In this document: piece by piece, positions 1-14,787 of the stretch | Position numbering within the stretch: the first letter of the stretch is position 1 | Layout: each line of letters opens with the position of its first letter | Source: a virus | Length of the DNA: 14,787 nt | Strand: one strand, 5' to 3' | IMG/VR virus record: IMGVR_UViG_3300027782_000022 | The notes under the pieces: model-generated | Databases searched by the model: none | The model's input: the letters and a program-made list of their open reading frames with translations, nothing else | Told to the model about the DNA's origin: nothing | Translations under genes and position numbers: made by a program

Positions 1-127
1 CCACAGTCCTCCGTTGCGGCCCTGTCTCCAACCGTGGCAGCACGAACCCTTCAGGATGTACCCGAGCCTTCTCGGTCACGCTTTGGCCTCTCCTGGAGCG
101 TTCTGGGACTTCTGGGGGATAATTGAG
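1..127. repeat. Terminal direct repeat, copy 1. Exact duplicate of 14661..14787, most likely the overlap of a circular assembly.
   Basis: Base-by-base comparison shows ccacagtcctccgttgcggc...tctgggggataattgag is identical at both window ends (127/127). The repeat cuts through a coding sequence (TerL 5' end), which fits an assembly overlap better than a physical terminal repeat. Confidence 0.95.
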
Positions 128-454
128 AGGGGCGGCGGGAGTGTCCGATGGCCTGTCTGAAAAACGGGTTGCAACTTTTTTTCCGTTCCGTTTCGCGGTG
201 GCTCGCGCTGATCCGAGTCGGCCGCCGTGTGATCGGTTGCAGCTGAGGTGGGCTATGCCTGCGGCGTCAAGGCTGGGGGCTATTTCGCCTGTTTCTGCCA
301 ATGGTGGTTCGTGGTCTGCGCTTGGGCCGTCTGGGTGTGATCCGGGCAAGGTCATGTCGACTGGGTAGCCGCAGCGGATACAGACGGCTTCGCATTTGGC
401 TAGGACTTGCTTGCGCCATGCTCGATAGGCCGCTGTGTTGTGGAGACTGCTCAT
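1..454 (-). CDS. HNH endonuclease domain ORF, partial in this window. It has no stop codon and continues in frame into the large terminase across the circular junction.
   Basis: The ATG at 454..452 overlaps the stop of the upstream 72-aa ORF (ATGA). Hand translation gives MSSLHNTAAYRAWRKQVLAKCEAVCIRCGYPVDMTLPGSHPDGPSADHEPPLAETGEIAPSLDAAGIAHLSCNRSHGGRLGSARATAKRNGKKVATRFSDRPSDTPAAPLNYPPEVPERSRRGQS, followed by the TerL start codon GTG. It carries a C-x2-C...DH...AH-x2-CN-x-S-x-G HNH signature. The frame is open to base 1, and bases 1..127 repeat the TerL 5' end. It is absent from the ORF track because it runs off the window edge. Confidence 0.8.
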   Translation of the reverse strand, partial: MSSLHNTAAYRAWRKQVLAKCEAVCIRCGYPVDMTLPGSHPDGPSADHEPPLAETGEIAPSLDAAGIAHLSCNRSHGGRLGSARATAKRNGKKVATRFSDRPSDTPAAPLNYPPEVPERSRRGQSVTEKARVHPEGFVLPRLETGPQRRTV

Positions 455-669
455 GCTCGGCGTCCGGCAAGAATCCTGTGGACTGCTTCGACGGGGTAGC
501 CCTTCTGTCGGGCTTGGCAGGCCATGAGCCAGCGCTCATGTGTTTCGGGTCGGCAGAACTGGCAGGGGCTGGTGTGGTCGGTGTCTATCCAGCCTCGGTA
601 ACAGATTACGTGGCCGCAGTTGCAGCCAGGCTTTCGACAGTGTGCGTCTATTTCGATGGGTGTGTGCAT
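451..669 (-). CDS. Cys-rich putative zinc-finger protein (72 aa) of unknown function. It is the first gene after the large non-coding region and is coupled to the HNH-TerL ORF.
   Basis: The ORF has 7 Cys (C-x4-C-x-C-x4-C...C-x2-C). An extended SD, aGGGGAAAcaaATG, lies upstream. Its stop overlaps the HNH start (ATGA). Confidence 0.7.
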   Translation of the reverse strand: MHTPIEIDAHCRKPGCNCGHVICYRGWIDTDHTSPCQFCRPETHERWLMACQARQKGYPVEAVHRILAGRRA

Positions 670-2489: not shown

Positions 2490-2876
2490 CTACTTTCCTG
2501 GTGTGCAGGTCCAGCGACCGCCGGCCCAATGCTTTGAGCCCGACCACTTTCCCCTGTAATTAAGCGTTTCGACCATGGCCGCGATCTGAAGATTCCGAGG
2601 CCATTTGTGCATTTCTGTTGCCCTAAGGCGTGCGGCAAATTCCCTAGGCTTTGGGTGCCAGGTCTTCAGCCAGTCAAGCATCATCCATGTGGCCCCATCG
2701 GTCAGGGCGTCATTGAATTGGAACATTCCAAAGTACCCGTTTGTCCGGTTCGTGCTTTTCGGGTTGCTGTGTGATTCCCGCTCGGCCACACAATGCACAT
2801 AGGCAGCCTGATCGGGAGGGATCACGTAGGTCGGGCCTGCGAGGAGGGCCGCAGCTGTCACGGCCGCGACGATCAA
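2490..2876 (-). CDS. Transglycosylase/lysozyme-like protein with an Ala-rich N-terminal hydrophobic segment (128 aa). The start codon is uncertain.
   Basis: VAERESHSNPKSTNRTNGYFGMFQF resembles the E-S...G-(L/M)-(F/M)-Q catalytic region of SLT/Rpf-type transglycosylases. The N-terminus is MIVAAVTAAALLAGP. The track start is TTG, overlapping the HTH stop (TTGA). A GTG five codons downstream is an alternative start. Confidence 0.65.
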   Translation of the reverse strand: MIVAAVTAAALLAGPTYVIPPDQAAYVHCVAERESHSNPKSTNRTNGYFGMFQFNDALTDGATWMMLDWLKTWHPKPREFAARLRATEMHKWPRNLQIAAMVETLNYRGKWSGSKHWAGGRWTCTPGK

Positions 2877-3070
2877 ACCGCCTCGATGATCGTAACGGTA
2901 GGCGATACGCGAGTACGCGTGATTGCTTCCACGCTGTCGCGGTTTACTCGCCTCTGGCCGCCGGGCGTCCTGTGTCCCTCGATGATGCCGAGGTCGAGGT
3001 AGCGCCCGACCGTGTCAGTTGAGACGCCAAGGATCTTGGCAGCCTCTCCAGGTGTAATGATTTCGCTCAT
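2873..3070 (-). CDS. Excisionase/MerR-type helix-turn-helix DNA-binding protein (65 aa).
   Basis: ITPGEAAKILGVSTDTVGRYLDLGIIEGHRTPGGQRRVNRDSVE matches the HTH_17 / excisionase-family pattern. The leader cGAAAGGGGAAAcgATG follows a 49-bp non-coding gap. Confidence 0.85.
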   Translation of the reverse strand: MSEIITPGEAAKILGVSTDTVGRYLDLGIIEGHRTPGGQRRVNRDSVEAITRTRVSPTVTIIEAV

Positions 3071-10577: not shown

Positions 10578-12098
10578 TTAGTCTTCGAGGCTGATGATGC
10601 CAGCGCCGGAGATGATCTGCGAGGCGCCGTAGCCATAGACCGCAACGTCGCGGCCCAACTGTGCGACGTTCTCGACGGTGGCGAGACGGGGGCCGTCTTC
10701 GATCCACTTGGCTGCCTCGCGGTTGGAGACGATTGCAGCATTGCCGCCCAGGTTGCGGTCGAGGATGACCGGGAGACCTGAGACGCTAACGGCGAGAGTG
10801 TTTGCGCTTGCCGTACCCGACACGTTGTAGGTGCCGTAGTTGGACGGGAAGAACGTGCTCCAGCCGCCGATCTTGATGAACACTGCCGGGGAGACCAGGA
10901 CGAATTCGGCCGGCATTCCGGTCGCGGTCTGGCACTCGACGGATGCTGCGAACACTGCCTCGCGGAAGGCCGAGCCATCCGTGTCGGCTGTGATGTCGTA
11001 GGTGAGCGGGGTGCGCGCACCGTAGACGGCTGCGATGAACGCGATGTCCGTAACCTGAACGTACGAGTTCAGCATGATGCGGGTGTGTGCATCGACGTAG
11101 GACGGGGTGGAGCGCTGAAGCAGCTGGTAGGAGATGTCCGAGCCAGCGGCGTAGGTCTTCAGCGTTGCGGTGCCCTTGAGAAGGTCGATGCGAACCGAGT
11201 TAACCTCGTCCTTTTCGTCGATTTGCTCGGCCACAATCTCGGTCAAATCGCCTGACCAGTAAGGCCAGTTAAAGACGGTGCCCGAGGTGCCAGCTGACTC
11301 CGTGCCGAATGCGGTGATGGTCGGGCGACCTAGGTCGAAGATGCCGCGAACGATGCTCGACCAGTTCGGGGGCAGGACGCCTGGGTTATTGTCTGTGATC
11401 TGATCGACCAGGGCGCGTGCCTCGATCTCGCCGTTCAGAACTGCAAGGCGGTACTCGCCAAAGCTGCGGTACTGGGCGAGTTCGTGCACCTGGGGGGCTG
11501 CGGCGTATGAGCGTGCCTCGATCTGAGCAACCTGCTCACGAACGGTGGCAATGGCCTCACGTGCCTGGATGTCGGCGGTGACCGCAGGAGCGGTTTCCAC
11601 CTCTACGGTTTCGACTGACATTTCTTCCTCTCGGATTGCTGTTACACCGGCCGTGGGATATGCCGGCATATGGGTTATTGACGTCTCCATGAGAGAGGCC
11701 GCCATGTGCTGGACCGCAGTCTTTGCCCGGTTCCAGACAGATTTGGTCGGCATGAAACCGACAGAAAGGCCCTTTGCGGAGCCTGTGCGGATGAGGGTCG
11801 CGGCGTCGCGGCCCTGCACTGTGTTGGCGATATTAAAGTCGATGTAAAGCCCGTCTGGCTTATTCTCAGCTGCGGTAATAACGCCGATGGGCTCATTGTG
11901 GCGGTAGGCGATGGGCTTGCCGATAACGTCCTCGGGCTGGAAAGCGTTAGCGCCGAAAGATTCACGCACATTGCCGATGTTTGTTTCGACTCCGTAGGGG
12001 ACGGCGCGACCGTAGCCCTGTCCGGCGATGTCGGGGTTTGCGCTGTCCTCGCGCATTTCGACAATGAAATCGGCTGAAAACTCTGTGGTCTGCATCAT
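10578..12098 (-). CDS. Fusion polyprotein: HK97-family prohead serine protease (S78) - short acidic/coiled linker - HK97-fold major capsid protein (506 aa).
   Basis: N-terminal protease motifs are IAYRHNEPIG, GLSVGF and METSITHMPAYP. The linker is REEEMSVETVEVETAPAVTADIQAREAIATVREQVAQIEARS. The C-terminal ~300 aa is typical of HK97-like capsid proteins (...LPPNWSSIVRGIFDLGRPTITAFGTE...). ATGA coupling to the portal gene. Confidence 0.9.
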   Translation of the reverse strand: MMQTTEFSADFIVEMREDSANPDIAGQGYGRAVPYGVETNIGNVRESFGANAFQPEDVIGKPIAYRHNEPIGVITAAENKPDGLYIDFNIANTVQGRDAATLIRTGSAKGLSVGFMPTKSVWNRAKTAVQHMAASLMETSITHMPAYPTAGVTAIREEEMSVETVEVETAPAVTADIQAREAIATVREQVAQIEARSYAAAPQVHELAQYRSFGEYRLAVLNGEIEARALVDQITDNNPGVLPPNWSSIVRGIFDLGRPTITAFGTESAGTSGTVFNWPYWSGDLTEIVAEQIDEKDEVNSVRIDLLKGTATLKTYAAGSDISYQLLQRSTPSYVDAHTRIMLNSYVQVTDIAFIAAVYGARTPLTYDITADTDGSAFREAVFAASVECQTATGMPAEFVLVSPAVFIKIGGWSTFFPSNYGTYNVSGTASANTLAVSVSGLPVILDRNLGGNAAIVSNREAAKWIEDGPRLATVENVAQLGRDVAVYGYGASQIISGAGIISLED

Positions 12099-13320: not shown

Positions 13321-14739
13321 TTATGCGCGTCGGCGTGTATGGATTCGAGCCATGGGCCTCGGGGTCTTGCTTGCCTGGTAGGCCGCGAACATGACGGCCC
13401 GTGCTGCGTACACGCCTCCATGGCCCATCCGGGCAGACATGACCCATCCGCCTTGGCGCTTGGAGATATTCGATTGCGTGAAATGCTCCAATAGCGTTTC
13501 CGAATCTTCGTGGACTATTGCCCGACGGTCGAACAGATCTAGGAGGTTCTGGGTTGCAGCTGCGGCTTCGCGCTGCCCGACGAGTTCGTCGAAACGCTCT
13601 TGAAGCCTGTCTACATAGCCTGGGGTGACCTGTATAAATAGGCTGGGGTGATCCTTGCGGATTTCCCCTAAGCGTGCGTCGACATCCTTAATCGTTCGGT
13701 GAGTAGTGGCCCGGACAACGATGCGCCCATCCTCCAGCGGTGCGGCGATTGCTACAGCGTGGCCCATTCCGTCAAAGTCGGACTCGACCGCCACAGACCA
13801 GATCCCCTCGGGGGGCAACCCTTCGTCGGAGAGGGTTTCTTTCCACCAGGAATCTTTCAGCCAATGGTTTGCCCGGGGAACCCACATATTCAGGTATTCG
13901 CGCAGCCATGAGGATTGCTCGATGTTTTCCCATTGGCCTCGGAGGAAGGCCTCGCGCTTATCGTTCCATTCTGGGCTAGCGTACTTCCAGGTTTCCGGAT
14001 CGTCAGGATCTGCGGTCGGTGGCGCTGACCATTCCAGGAGCAGAATATTTCCAGGATCATCGGCCCCGAGGTGGTCGATTGCCCTTTGCCGATATGAGGC
14101 CATGAGATCGCTCGATGAGTCACCAGCCGTGGAAACTAGGAAGGCCTGCGGGTTGAGTCGCTCGGCCATGGTCGGCGCGATAGCGCCCATGAACACCTGG
14201 CTAGGGATGCTCCAGGCTTCATCGAGGAAAGCCATGTTTATGGAGAATCCGACGCCAGCGGAATCGTTTGCTGCATGAATTAGCCATCGGTCGCCGGACG
14301 GTAGTTCGATGCCTGCCCGTTCGTTACCCCATCGGGCTGCTTGCTTGCCGTACTTTTCCACGGCCCAAATGCCAGCCGGACGCATAACCTCCATGGCGGT
14401 TGAGCGCTTATTGGCCACATGGAGAATCGTCTGCGGCTCCCCGAACAGTTCGGCATGGTGAAGCCGCCACATGCAGATTGCCCGAGACAGGACCGACTTG
14501 CCGGACTGCCGAGCGACTGTAAGCACGACCGTCGGCCAGCACAGTTCCCCAGTTTCGGGGTAATACTCCAGCGCCCGGTCGAGCGCGTAAGCCTGCCAGC
14601 CTCTCAGCTGCAATCCGTACACGGTAGACAGCCAAACCCGAGCCGCGGGGCCATGCGTTTCCACAGTCCTCCGTTGCGGCCCTGTCTCCAACCGTGGCAG
14701 CACGAACCCTTCAGGATGTACCCGAGCCTTCTCGGTCAC
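13321..14739 (-). CDS. Terminase large subunit (472 aa from the GTG). The reading frame stays open upstream to the window edge and joins the HNH ORF on the circle.
   Basis: Walker A-like VARQSGKS, Walker B MAFLDEAW, and a C-terminal RNaseH-like nuclease region (VAVESDFDGMGHAVAIA). The GTG at 14739 has AGGAGAGG 7 nt upstream. Confidence 0.92.
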   Translation of the reverse strand: MTEKARVHPEGFVLPRLETGPQRRTVETHGPAARVWLSTVYGLQLRGWQAYALDRALEYYPETGELCWPTVVLTVARQSGKSVLSRAICMWRLHHAELFGEPQTILHVANKRSTAMEVMRPAGIWAVEKYGKQAARWGNERAGIELPSGDRWLIHAANDSAGVGFSINMAFLDEAWSIPSQVFMGAIAPTMAERLNPQAFLVSTAGDSSSDLMASYRQRAIDHLGADDPGNILLLEWSAPPTADPDDPETWKYASPEWNDKREAFLRGQWENIEQSSWLREYLNMWVPRANHWLKDSWWKETLSDEGLPPEGIWSVAVESDFDGMGHAVAIAAPLEDGRIVVRATTHRTIKDVDARLGEIRKDHPSLFIQVTPGYVDRLQERFDELVGQREAAAATQNLLDLFDRRAIVHEDSETLLEHFTQSNISKRQGGWVMSARMGHGGVYAARAVMFAAYQASKTPRPMARIHTRRRA

Positions 14740-14787
14740 GCTTTGGCCTCTCCTGGAGCGTTCTGGGACTTCTGGGGGATAATTGAG
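14661..14787. repeat. Terminal direct repeat, copy 2. Exact duplicate of 1..127.
   Basis: Same 127-nt string as 1..127. The unique genome length is therefore 14,660 bp. Confidence 0.95.

Follow-up and report, generated by a model that had tools for sequence, protein, structure and literature searches.

An open reading frame joining an HNH endonuclease to the large terminase subunit, with a probable cos site in its linker codons, in a family of very small siphovirus genomes

The DNA considered here is a metagenomic viral sequence of 14,787 nt, IMG/VR record IMGVR_UViG_3300027782_000022 (hereafter the window, meaning the whole stretch analysed; all coordinates are window positions), and the subject is a minus-strand open reading frame (ORF) that joins an HNH endonuclease to the large terminase subunit (TerL), together with the cohesive-end site (cos) that appears to lie within its codons. 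The window carries an exact terminal direct repeat of 127 nt (1..127 = 14661..14787), and removal of one copy gives a circle of 14,660 bp. The minus-strand frame that opens at the ATG at 454 has no stop down to base 1 and on the circle enters the TerL frame, which closes at 13323..13321; the resulting HNH::TerL ORF has 597 codons, and the GTG at 14739 (= 79), which a mechanical ORF list gives as the start of TerL, forms its codon 126. A first-pass annotation of the sequence had described this open 597-codon frame, and its description holds on the 14,660-bp circle; the motifs that it quoted, CIRCG, ADHEPP and IAHLSCNRSHGG, are all present. The parts of the ORF and of its product are as follows.

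1..454, minus strand: 5' part of the HNH::TerL ORF, codons 1–151, with the ATG at 454..452, recognised from the translation, the terminal repeat and matches to HNH families in PHROGs.
13321..14787, minus strand: 3' part of the HNH::TerL ORF (TerL), codons 110–597 plus the stop at 13323..13321, at the extreme left of the proposed virion DNA.
185..454, minus strand: HNH nuclease domain, amino acids 1–90, recognised from the phrog_338 match, invariant residues and an AlphaFold predicted local distance difference test score (pLDDT) of 85–97.
74..184, minus strand: linker, amino acids 91–127, predicted to be disordered, its DNA holding an A-rich tract, a T-run, the putative cosN and a phased repeat array.
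14737..14739 (= 77..79), minus strand: GTG taken as the TerL start, fusion codon 126, without conservation as a start codon.
14683..14718 (= 23..58), minus strand: HP(E/D)GFVLPRLET motif, conserved, with P140, R141 and E143 invariant.

The first 125 amino acids match HNH endonuclease families in PHROGs (phrog_338, E = 3.6e-13), and C25, C28, H48, H69, C72, N73 and H76 are invariant in the HNH part of 52 fusions. With these 52 fusions as the alignment, AlphaFold2 gave a confident model for HNH residues 1–90 (mean pLDDT 90), a pLDDT below 50 for linker residues 91–127 and confidence again in TerL from about residue 131; the linker also varies in length and sequence among relatives. The top Foldseek matches of the HNH model were all HNH nucleases, including that of phage GVE2 (5h0m), at weak scores (best E = 0.056). 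Neither Pfam nor NCBIfam called an HNH domain when the HNH part or the whole fusion was searched, the HNH part had no meaningful sequence match in the PDB, and a protein search with the HNH part plus linker found only distant HNH genes at 30–40% identity. The body of TerL opens with the HPDGFVLPRLET motif and its invariant P-R-x-E, where the predicted fold first becomes confident past the linker, and matches phrog_9 (E = 2.8e-39) and Pfam Terminase_6N. Its Walker A residues R202, Q203, G205, K206 and S207 (R202–S207) and Walker B residues D298 and E299 are invariant, as are the nuclease residues E444 and D448, with D509 and D526 nearly so. The closest PDB structure is the TerL of HK97 (6Z6D), both by sequence (E = 0.002) and by Foldseek (E = 6e-21), the latter also pairing the model with whole TerL proteins and with isolated nuclease and ATPase domains. 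Because the catalytic and zinc-binding residues of the HNH part and the Walker and acidic residues of TerL are invariant, both nucleases look active, to judge from residue conservation.

A search with the 597-amino-acid query against 5.8 billion proteins gave 254 matches, among them dozens of relatives of 585–611 amino acids with 57–88% identity over 99–100% of the query, mostly on contigs of 14.4–15.6 kb. The HNH and TerL parts were placed by local tblastn in 160 related loci, and they share one stop-free frame in 61 of the 63 loci that span the junction (about 40 of 42 unique contigs); these spanning relatives, some 40 independent contigs at 57–100% identity, keep the fusion in frame. Among the 39 distinct HNH-to-TerL spacers, stops occur in none in frame 0, as against 29 in the +1 frame and 22 in the +2 frame, and spacer length is divisible by three in 37, with 14 different lengths represented (111–177 nt and 534 nt). 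Because the spacers are stop-free only in the HNH frame and their varied lengths are multiples of three, the HNH–TerL frame is under selection; judged on these alignments its openness exceeds chance, and the fusion is no accident of one contig. The frame first suspected from the window is therefore real and conserved across a large and diverged family, relatives with N-terminal HNH extensions being present in the databases, and no stop of the kind that would speak against it interrupts the HNH frame of the 39 spacers. Frameshifts were seen in two loci: L140, a junction contig, has a 2-nt deletion exactly within the 13-nt core described below (ACTCCCGCGCCCT, L140:3230-3370), which could have arisen when polished ends were assembled together or could mark a defective variant, and L154, from an old sample, has one within the HNH domain.

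Two shorter classes among the matches, of about 564 and of 430–473 amino acids, were considered as possible unfused relatives and rejected in the cases examined. In the 564-amino-acid class (P0001) the gene caller took Met34 as the start, and the full HNH N-terminus is open upstream in locus L002; in the 463-amino-acid class (P0117, locus L001) the contig ends in the linker and the frame is open from its second base. A profile search of 1.84 billion cluster representatives extended the family to many fusions of 575–750 amino acids with less than 50% identity, in which other HNH subtypes are joined to the same TerL; one of these, P0233, has an HNH and a TerL recognised by Pfam and lies on a 13-kb contig with the gene order of the window. 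The linker can also grow, since locus L138 (L138:3001-3900) carries an in-frame insertion of about 130 amino acids upstream of cos, Cys-rich (CRRCGKPF..CSFEC..CSVCG) and resembling an extra zinc-ribbon domain.

The ends of related contigs fall within this ORF. Left ends were collected in an IMG/VR scan with the fusion, where a large share of contigs begin at query residue 110–113, and right ends in a second scan with the HNH part alone. On the left, 38 contigs from 37 metagenomes start 5–13 nt upstream of a conserved run of five or six C, 26 of them at exactly 9 nt; the corresponding base in the window is position 127 on the minus strand (CTCAATTAT and then CCCCC), and the edge of the window falls on the same base (14787 = 127). 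On the right, at least 25 contigs from 24 metagenomes stop 23–25 nt past a conserved T-run, and more do so at 21–22 nt; the counterpart in the window is position 141, where the coding strand reads ...GGACAC-3', and a window-like subset stops at exactly this base. The two ends of one contig, IMGVR_UViG_3300021225_000354, which are L030:1-19 and L105:3315-3331, have Illumina adapter joined directly to them, the remnant in L030 reading CCGTGTGCTCTTCCGATTT... and that in L105 reading ...AGATCGGAAGAGCGTCG, directly at the base homologous to 141. The adapters abut both ends of a single contig, and real DNA ends had therefore been ligated. Such remnants are a contamination of the public record, yet they are useful as proof of physical ends. 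The features of the linker DNA are listed here.

156..165, minus strand: T-run GTTTTTCAGA, with an A-rich tract before it, conserved, about 15 nt upstream of the right genome end.
141, minus strand: right genome end, last base pair after end-polishing, the probable position of the bottom-strand nick.
128..140, minus strand: putative cosN core TCCCGCCGCCCCT, 13 nt, encoding part of T-P-A-A-P, the probable 3' overhang.
119..127, minus strand: left genome end, first 9 nt CTCAATTAT, 127 being the first base of the left end.
91..118, minus strand: C5 run (118..114) and phased repeats (115..91), also present as the copy at 14751..14778, a cosB-like array.

The 13 nt between the two ends, TCCCGCCGCCCCT, are missing from left-end and right-end contigs alike and present in all junction-spanning contigs; one contig (L121) keeps the core whole and stops exactly at its 3' edge, and another (L119) keeps part of it. 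The ends are sharp and unique in at least 60 independent contigs, and the absence of the core on both sides fits 3' overhangs that had been polished off, in keeping with the report that an assembled cos phage may span its genome from one end to the other while lacking the overhang (Merrill et al., PMC5000459). Together these data suggest that the virion DNA carries a 13-nt 3' cohesive overhang, its 3' polarity being deduced from the absence of the core. Imprecise and permuted ends of the headful type were not found: the ends are nucleotide-precise in dozens of assemblies, and TerL groups with the cos-type enzyme of HK97.

That the genome ends lie in the linker had not been foreseen by the first-pass annotation, for which a cos end between the HNH and TerL parts would have kept the fused ORF out of the virion and spoken against it. 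Such an end does exist, and the fusion nevertheless stands, because the frame across cos is clearly under selection; as the selected frame spans cos, virion DNA holds the ORF in two pieces, which become continuous again once the replicating genome is circular or concatemeric.

A false junction, on which view the 127-nt direct repeat would truly terminate a linear genome that carries HNH at one end and TerL at the other as separate genes, has in its favour that the window is a metagenomic contig whose repeat has the length of a common assembler k-mer (127), and that many relatives were assembled as linear contigs ending in the linker. However, the same junction occurs in mid-contig in about 40 independent contigs from JGI, ENA, Logan and NCBI samples and assemblers, with the same 13-nt core and an open frame, so that the idea of two genes that never form one ORF was rejected; the 13 nt could not be created by overlapping ends, because they are absent from polished ends. 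A true direct terminal repeat would, moreover, not make contigs stop sharply at the repeat boundary, and the record deposited for the cultured phage Quaker closes with a similar terminus, suggesting a matching cos end. An artefact of this kind is thus hardly credible, and the 127-nt repeat of the window most likely stems from an assembler k-mer, the assembly graph having had a vertex at the physical end. It is almost as improbable that the pile-ups of contig ends reflect loss of sequencing coverage or assembly at a C-rich stretch in a circular or permuted genome whose ORF is never split. The core TCCCGCCGCCCCT and the C5-6 run are indeed extremely C-rich, and such stretches can lose Illumina coverage, but both ends are sharp to the nucleotide and lie at fixed distances from conserved motifs across different core variants. 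The adapters on both ends of one contig (L030, L105), the exact stop of L121 at the 3' edge of the core and the many assemblies that read through the core without trouble also speak against such a dropout.

The elements around these ends are conserved as DNA. In the lambda and HK97 cos sites an A/T tract is followed by the cleavage core and then by a phased array on the terminase side, and the window has the same topology. Its T-run and A-rich tract occupy the expected place of a bend or a cosQ-like element. Past the left end, on the downstream side, YYAGRA motifs recur with a 10-nt period in 69 distinct relatives; in the window the repeats at 115..91 follow the pattern CCAGAA-N3-CCAGAA-N4-CCAGGA (CCAGAAGTCCCAGAACGCTCCAGGA), and none of 200 shuffles of the window yielded such a phased triple. 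The units (CCAGAA, CCAGGA or CTAGAA) begin right past the left end and number three to seven in relatives (L002-L086). The phased CCAGRA array is probably a cosB-like binding array. In an alignment of 21 diverse junctions there are no gaps from the T-run through the core to about 30 nt past the C-run; all indels lie outside this stretch, and the spacing of the elements is fixed.

The identical core DNA, CACTCCCGCCGCCCCT, yields TPAAP in the window and in the majority of its relatives, LPPPP in L113 and L114, and HSRRP in L157, and despite these three readings HNH and TerL always regain a common frame. Since three frames are used for the same core, it is the DNA of cos that is conserved rather than a peptide, and TPAAP as a functional linker peptide is ruled out. 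In terms of the predicted structure, the packaging signal is written into the part of the protein expected to tolerate almost any sequence, the linker. About 45 nt lie between the last HNH codon and the right genome end, and TerL follows directly across cos. In the linker there is no terminator-like site on the coding strand that would part the two halves, the count of terminator-like sites being no higher than in shuffled sequence, and no stable RNA structure was found, the predicted fold being weaker than those of shuffles (z = +1.7). In the distant fusion P0233, at less than 50% identity, the linker codons (L162:1061-1340) again hold ..GTTATTTACACAGAACAC GCCGCCCCCGACCCC.., and because this sequence recurs there, cos inside an ORF may be general in the wider fusion superfamily.

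The window also has features that would allow TerL to be made on its own. As the first-pass annotation had noted, the GTG at 14739 is preceded at 7-nt spacing by AGGAGAGG, which resembles a Shine–Dalgarno (SD) sequence; the ORF list accordingly gives a TerL of 472 amino acids from this codon, and the GTG is retained in L007, L009, L017 and L025. On this basis the working terminase might be free TerL, with the fusion a minor or dispensable read-through product. The comparison with relatives makes this improbable. The GTG is kept only in those few near-identical sequences, and relatives at 97–99% identity read GQKQTDK instead of GQSVTEK and have no start codon there; the stretch from cos to PRLET lacks all three possible start codons (ATG, GTG, TTG) in 13 of 74 distinct sequences, and in only 10 of the 74 does it hold an ATG or GTG preceded by anything resembling an SD. 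The supposed SD, AGGAGAGG, is itself the third unit of the 10-nt phased CCAGRA array, which is conserved as DNA. A separately initiated TerL is not a conserved feature, since the GTG and SD are lacking in close relatives and 13 of 74 sequences have no start of any kind, and the earlier proposal of a free TerL with its own strong ribosome-binding signal does not survive as a property of the family. The strong selection on the HNH frame also weighs against two alternative products, because it would be needless if TerL started alone. In most relatives, so far as their sequences reveal, the fusion is the only evident route to translating the conserved N-terminus of TerL.

Taken as a whole, the explanation that we favour is that the window is one unit of a cos-type siphovirus genome of about 14.66 kb, assembled across its end junction; that its terminase is a single chain of 597 amino acids, comprising HNH (amino acids 1–90), a predicted disordered linker of about 40 amino acids and an HK97-like TerL from about residue 131; and that cos lies in the linker DNA of this HNH–TerL gene, which is split in the virion and restored on the circle. 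We put the probability of this combined explanation at roughly 80%. Along the coding strand, the proposed cos elements would be the A/T tract (165..156), the 13-bp C-rich core (140..128), the C5 run (118..114) and the CCAGRA array (115..91). Staggered cuts at both edges of the core would yield virion DNA with 13-nt 3' cohesive ends; its rightmost sequence would be the HNH half, which lacks a stop codon, and its leftmost the TerL half, which lacks a conserved start. After injection the ends would anneal and be ligated, and only then, or from concatemers, would the full ORF be expressed; the fusion protein would recognise and cut cos within its own gene and package one unit length. The HNH and the TerL nuclease may each nick one strand, 13 bp apart, and the fusion presumably works uncleaved. 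The part of the small terminase subunit (TerS) may be taken by the linker, by HNH or the N-terminus of TerL, or by a small helix-turn-helix (HTH) or zinc-ribbon protein; candidates for cos recognition would be the basic linker with HNH, the TerL N-terminus, a 72-amino-acid Cys/His-rich ORF and a 65-amino-acid HTH protein.

More tentatively, the arrangement may act as a topological switch. Because the linear genome has a 5' half without a stop and a 3' half without a start, the terminase would be made only on the circle or concatemer; on this doubtful but possible extension the enzyme, produced after circularisation or concatemer formation, would cut its own gene and be autoregulated by uncut cos, with HNH and the basic linker serving as TerS and two nicks made 13 bp apart. 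If this were true, the terminase would be supplied according to how many cos junctions were still uncut, and would in this sense regulate itself.

The chain might instead be a polyprotein, cut in the linker by the prohead S78 protease or a host protease so that HNH and TerL act in trans as in HK97. Linker residues 91–127 are predicted to be disordered and vary in length and sequence, the genome has an S78 protease gene, joined to that of the capsid protein, and the HNH and TerL of HK97 work as separate chains, but the linker has no conserved peptide motif apart from the DNA-level conservation of cos. We regard such processing as unlikely, if a little less so than a free TerL; it touches the last step only and is compatible with the rest of the proposed single-chain scheme.

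Several other points count against the single-chain explanation. The Foldseek support for the HNH fold is weak (the best E value being that given above) and Pfam makes no HNH call; the genome ends are inferred from the stops of assemblies, with a 3' polarity that assumes standard end-polishing; and the frame is broken in the junction contigs L140 and L154, both probably errors. In this genome some free TerL could start at the GTG, the fusion could be cut in its disordered linker after translation, and the searches of the gene complement found no TerS.

The other genes of the window that bear on packaging are listed below.

451..669, minus strand: 72-amino-acid Cys/His-rich ORF (MHTPIEIDAHCRKPGCNCGHVICY...), its stop overlapping the HNH start (ATGA).
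2873..3070, minus strand: 65-amino-acid excisionase/MerR-type HTH protein, BldC-like (TIGR01764, E = 2.4e-10; weak phrog_57 match, E = 7e-4).
10578..12098, minus strand: S78 prohead protease and major capsid protein fused in a single gene of 506 amino acids.

No gene lies between cos and TerL, and when the ORFs of the window were searched against Pfam and PHROGs only the weak phrog_57 match (E = 7e-4) of the 65-amino-acid HTH protein pointed to a TerS family, in agreement with the earlier observation that no small terminase is recognisable. This HTH protein is conserved across 72 loci; it may have a regulatory role or may bind cos as a minimal TerS-like factor. The 72-amino-acid ORF is conserved in 77 loci at 43–100% identity and always ends at the HNH start; JGI gene calling missed it in L002 and called an ORF on the opposite strand instead. 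It recalls the 'zinc ribbon proteins' found beside phage HNH nickases (Xu and Gupta, PMC3592412). The head module of the window includes Phage_portal, Peptidase_S78 and Phage_capsid_4 domains, and a protease–capsid fusion gene like that of the window is also found in Microbacterium cluster EE and Arthrobacter cluster AN phages. In one relative, assembled by Logan from SRR30451267 (L157:11791-12192), an extra gene of 133 amino acids with a weak AAA_33 match lies between TerL and portal; the window has none.

The closest known system is the HNH-assisted cos packaging of HK97, the kinship to which the first-pass annotation had pointed and which the best match of TerL to 6Z6D by sequence and fold bears out. 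The HK97 system comprises the HNH protein gp74 and the terminase proteins gp1 and gp2 (Kala et al. 2014, as cited in PMC9410871 and PMC13595911); gp74 stimulates the cleavage of cos by TerL, and the HK97 ends have 3' overhangs (PMC9410871). As in HK97, the HNH gene of the window lies at the right genome end, adjoining cos and the terminase; TerL is of the HK97 type, the head module holds portal, S78 protease and capsid protein, the ends fit a 3' cohesive type, and the elements run in the order cosQ-like, cosN, cosB-like, with the binding array on the terminase side. The differences are that HNH and TerL occupy one reading frame in the window and are two trans-acting proteins in HK97, that cos lies within the ORF rather than between genes, that the window has no recognisable TerS gene, and that the probable overhang is 13 nt as against 10–12 nt. 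The HK97 genome, at 39.7 kb, is also far larger than the 14.7 kb of the window. No separate HNH polypeptide acting in trans was found; one ORF encodes both parts, uninterrupted by a stop and lacking any internal start that is conserved. Our verdict is that the system of the window is HK97-type HNH-dependent cos packaging in a variant form with fused HNH and TerL.

Similarities to free-standing enzymes of this class can also be drawn. Phage HNH enzymes encoded beside cos are strand-specific nickases (Xu and Gupta, PMC3592412), and N.phiGamma and its relatives are, like the HNH part of the window, small zinc-binding HNH proteins encoded beside cos and the terminase (PMC3592412), although they are not fused to it. 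The probable bottom-strand cut, AC^TC in top-strand notation, would resemble the AC^CG and AY^YS sites of N.phiGamma-type enzymes.

Megablast found no DNA similarity between the window and cultured phages. Among the latter, the nearest analogues are the 17.4-kb phages of Microbacterium cluster EE (Orlajensenviridae), of which Quaker (MH371111, 17,450 bp) serves for comparison: Quaker and the window both have very small genomes of the actinophage siphovirus type, a capsid–protease fusion gene (25% identity), an HNH gene at the right genome end (the last gene in Quaker) and small HTH proteins, relatives of the window also carrying an Lsr2-like protein. The right terminus of Quaker (L158, 17377-17450) reads ...GGTTTCTCCGTAGCGAGGGCCACCGACAC CCCGCCCCA-3', a T-rich run followed by GACAC and a C-rich stretch, which resembles the cos of the window. 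In contrast to the window, the Quaker HNH gene (gp25) closes with a stop of its own, 74 nt short of the genome end, cos lies between genes, and two small genes (gp1 and gp2) lie between cos and the terminase gp3. TerL identity between the two is below 32% and protein identities are 25–32%; with this divergence, no DNA similarity and fused HNH and TerL, the window does not belong to cluster EE. The same kind of cos being non-coding in Quaker and coding in the window fits a lineage with a more compact genome that shed the HNH stop and the genes in between, and the resemblance of the termini suggests an old, conserved type of cos among small actinophages.

More distant parallels exist for a processing site within the gene of its own enzyme. 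In the headful phages P22 (gene 3), SPP1 (gene 1) and P1 (pacA), the pac site lies within the small-terminase gene, and in the window the packaging site likewise falls within terminase coding sequence. Their series cuts are, however, imprecise, and terminal redundancy keeps an intact copy of the gene, whereas the cut in the window is precise and would split the gene in each virion. Integrases of the SSV type have the phage attachment site (attP) inside the int gene, so that here too the target of an enzyme lies in its own gene, which the reaction splits and the reverse reaction restores; the analogy is one of logic only, as site-specific recombination differs from terminase cleavage and the proteins and their biology are unrelated.

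In the full-text literature searched, whose coverage is incomplete and therefore no proof of novelty, neither a covalent HNH–TerL protein nor a cos site inside an ORF was found described. Public annotations of relatives read 'hypothetical protein' or 'terminase large subunit' with truncated starts, and gene calls often begin at Met34 (window 353..355) or later, inside HNH (P0001; P0050 = CAB4191156.1, 556 amino acids). Since starts at Met34 or later remove the CxxC zinc site, the database entries hide the fusion. The only pointers to a host are the placement of one TerL fragment (95% identity) in a 'Candidatus Nanopelagicales' metagenome-assembled genome and a 447-amino-acid homologue labelled Acidimicrobiia, neither of which we regard as reliable. 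Gene callers working on linear contigs will always miss the HNH::TerL ORF, and the conserved cos motif lets complete genomes of these abundant tiny freshwater and soil phages be recognised and oriented.

The papers on HK97 say only that gp74 stimulates cleavage by TerL (PMC9410871, PMC13595911), and the division of labour between HNH and TerL in the staggered cuts at cos is unclear for HK97-like phages, a question for which a natural single-chain system would be helpful. The system of the window would be such a natural minimal one, with a single-chain HNH–TerL, a defined cos of about 80 bp and no recognisable TerS. It would place a packaging signal in the codons of a disordered linker, where the same DNA is read in three ways among relatives, and would clearly exemplify a gene that packaging physically cuts in two, in every virion, and that the joining of the genome ends makes whole again.

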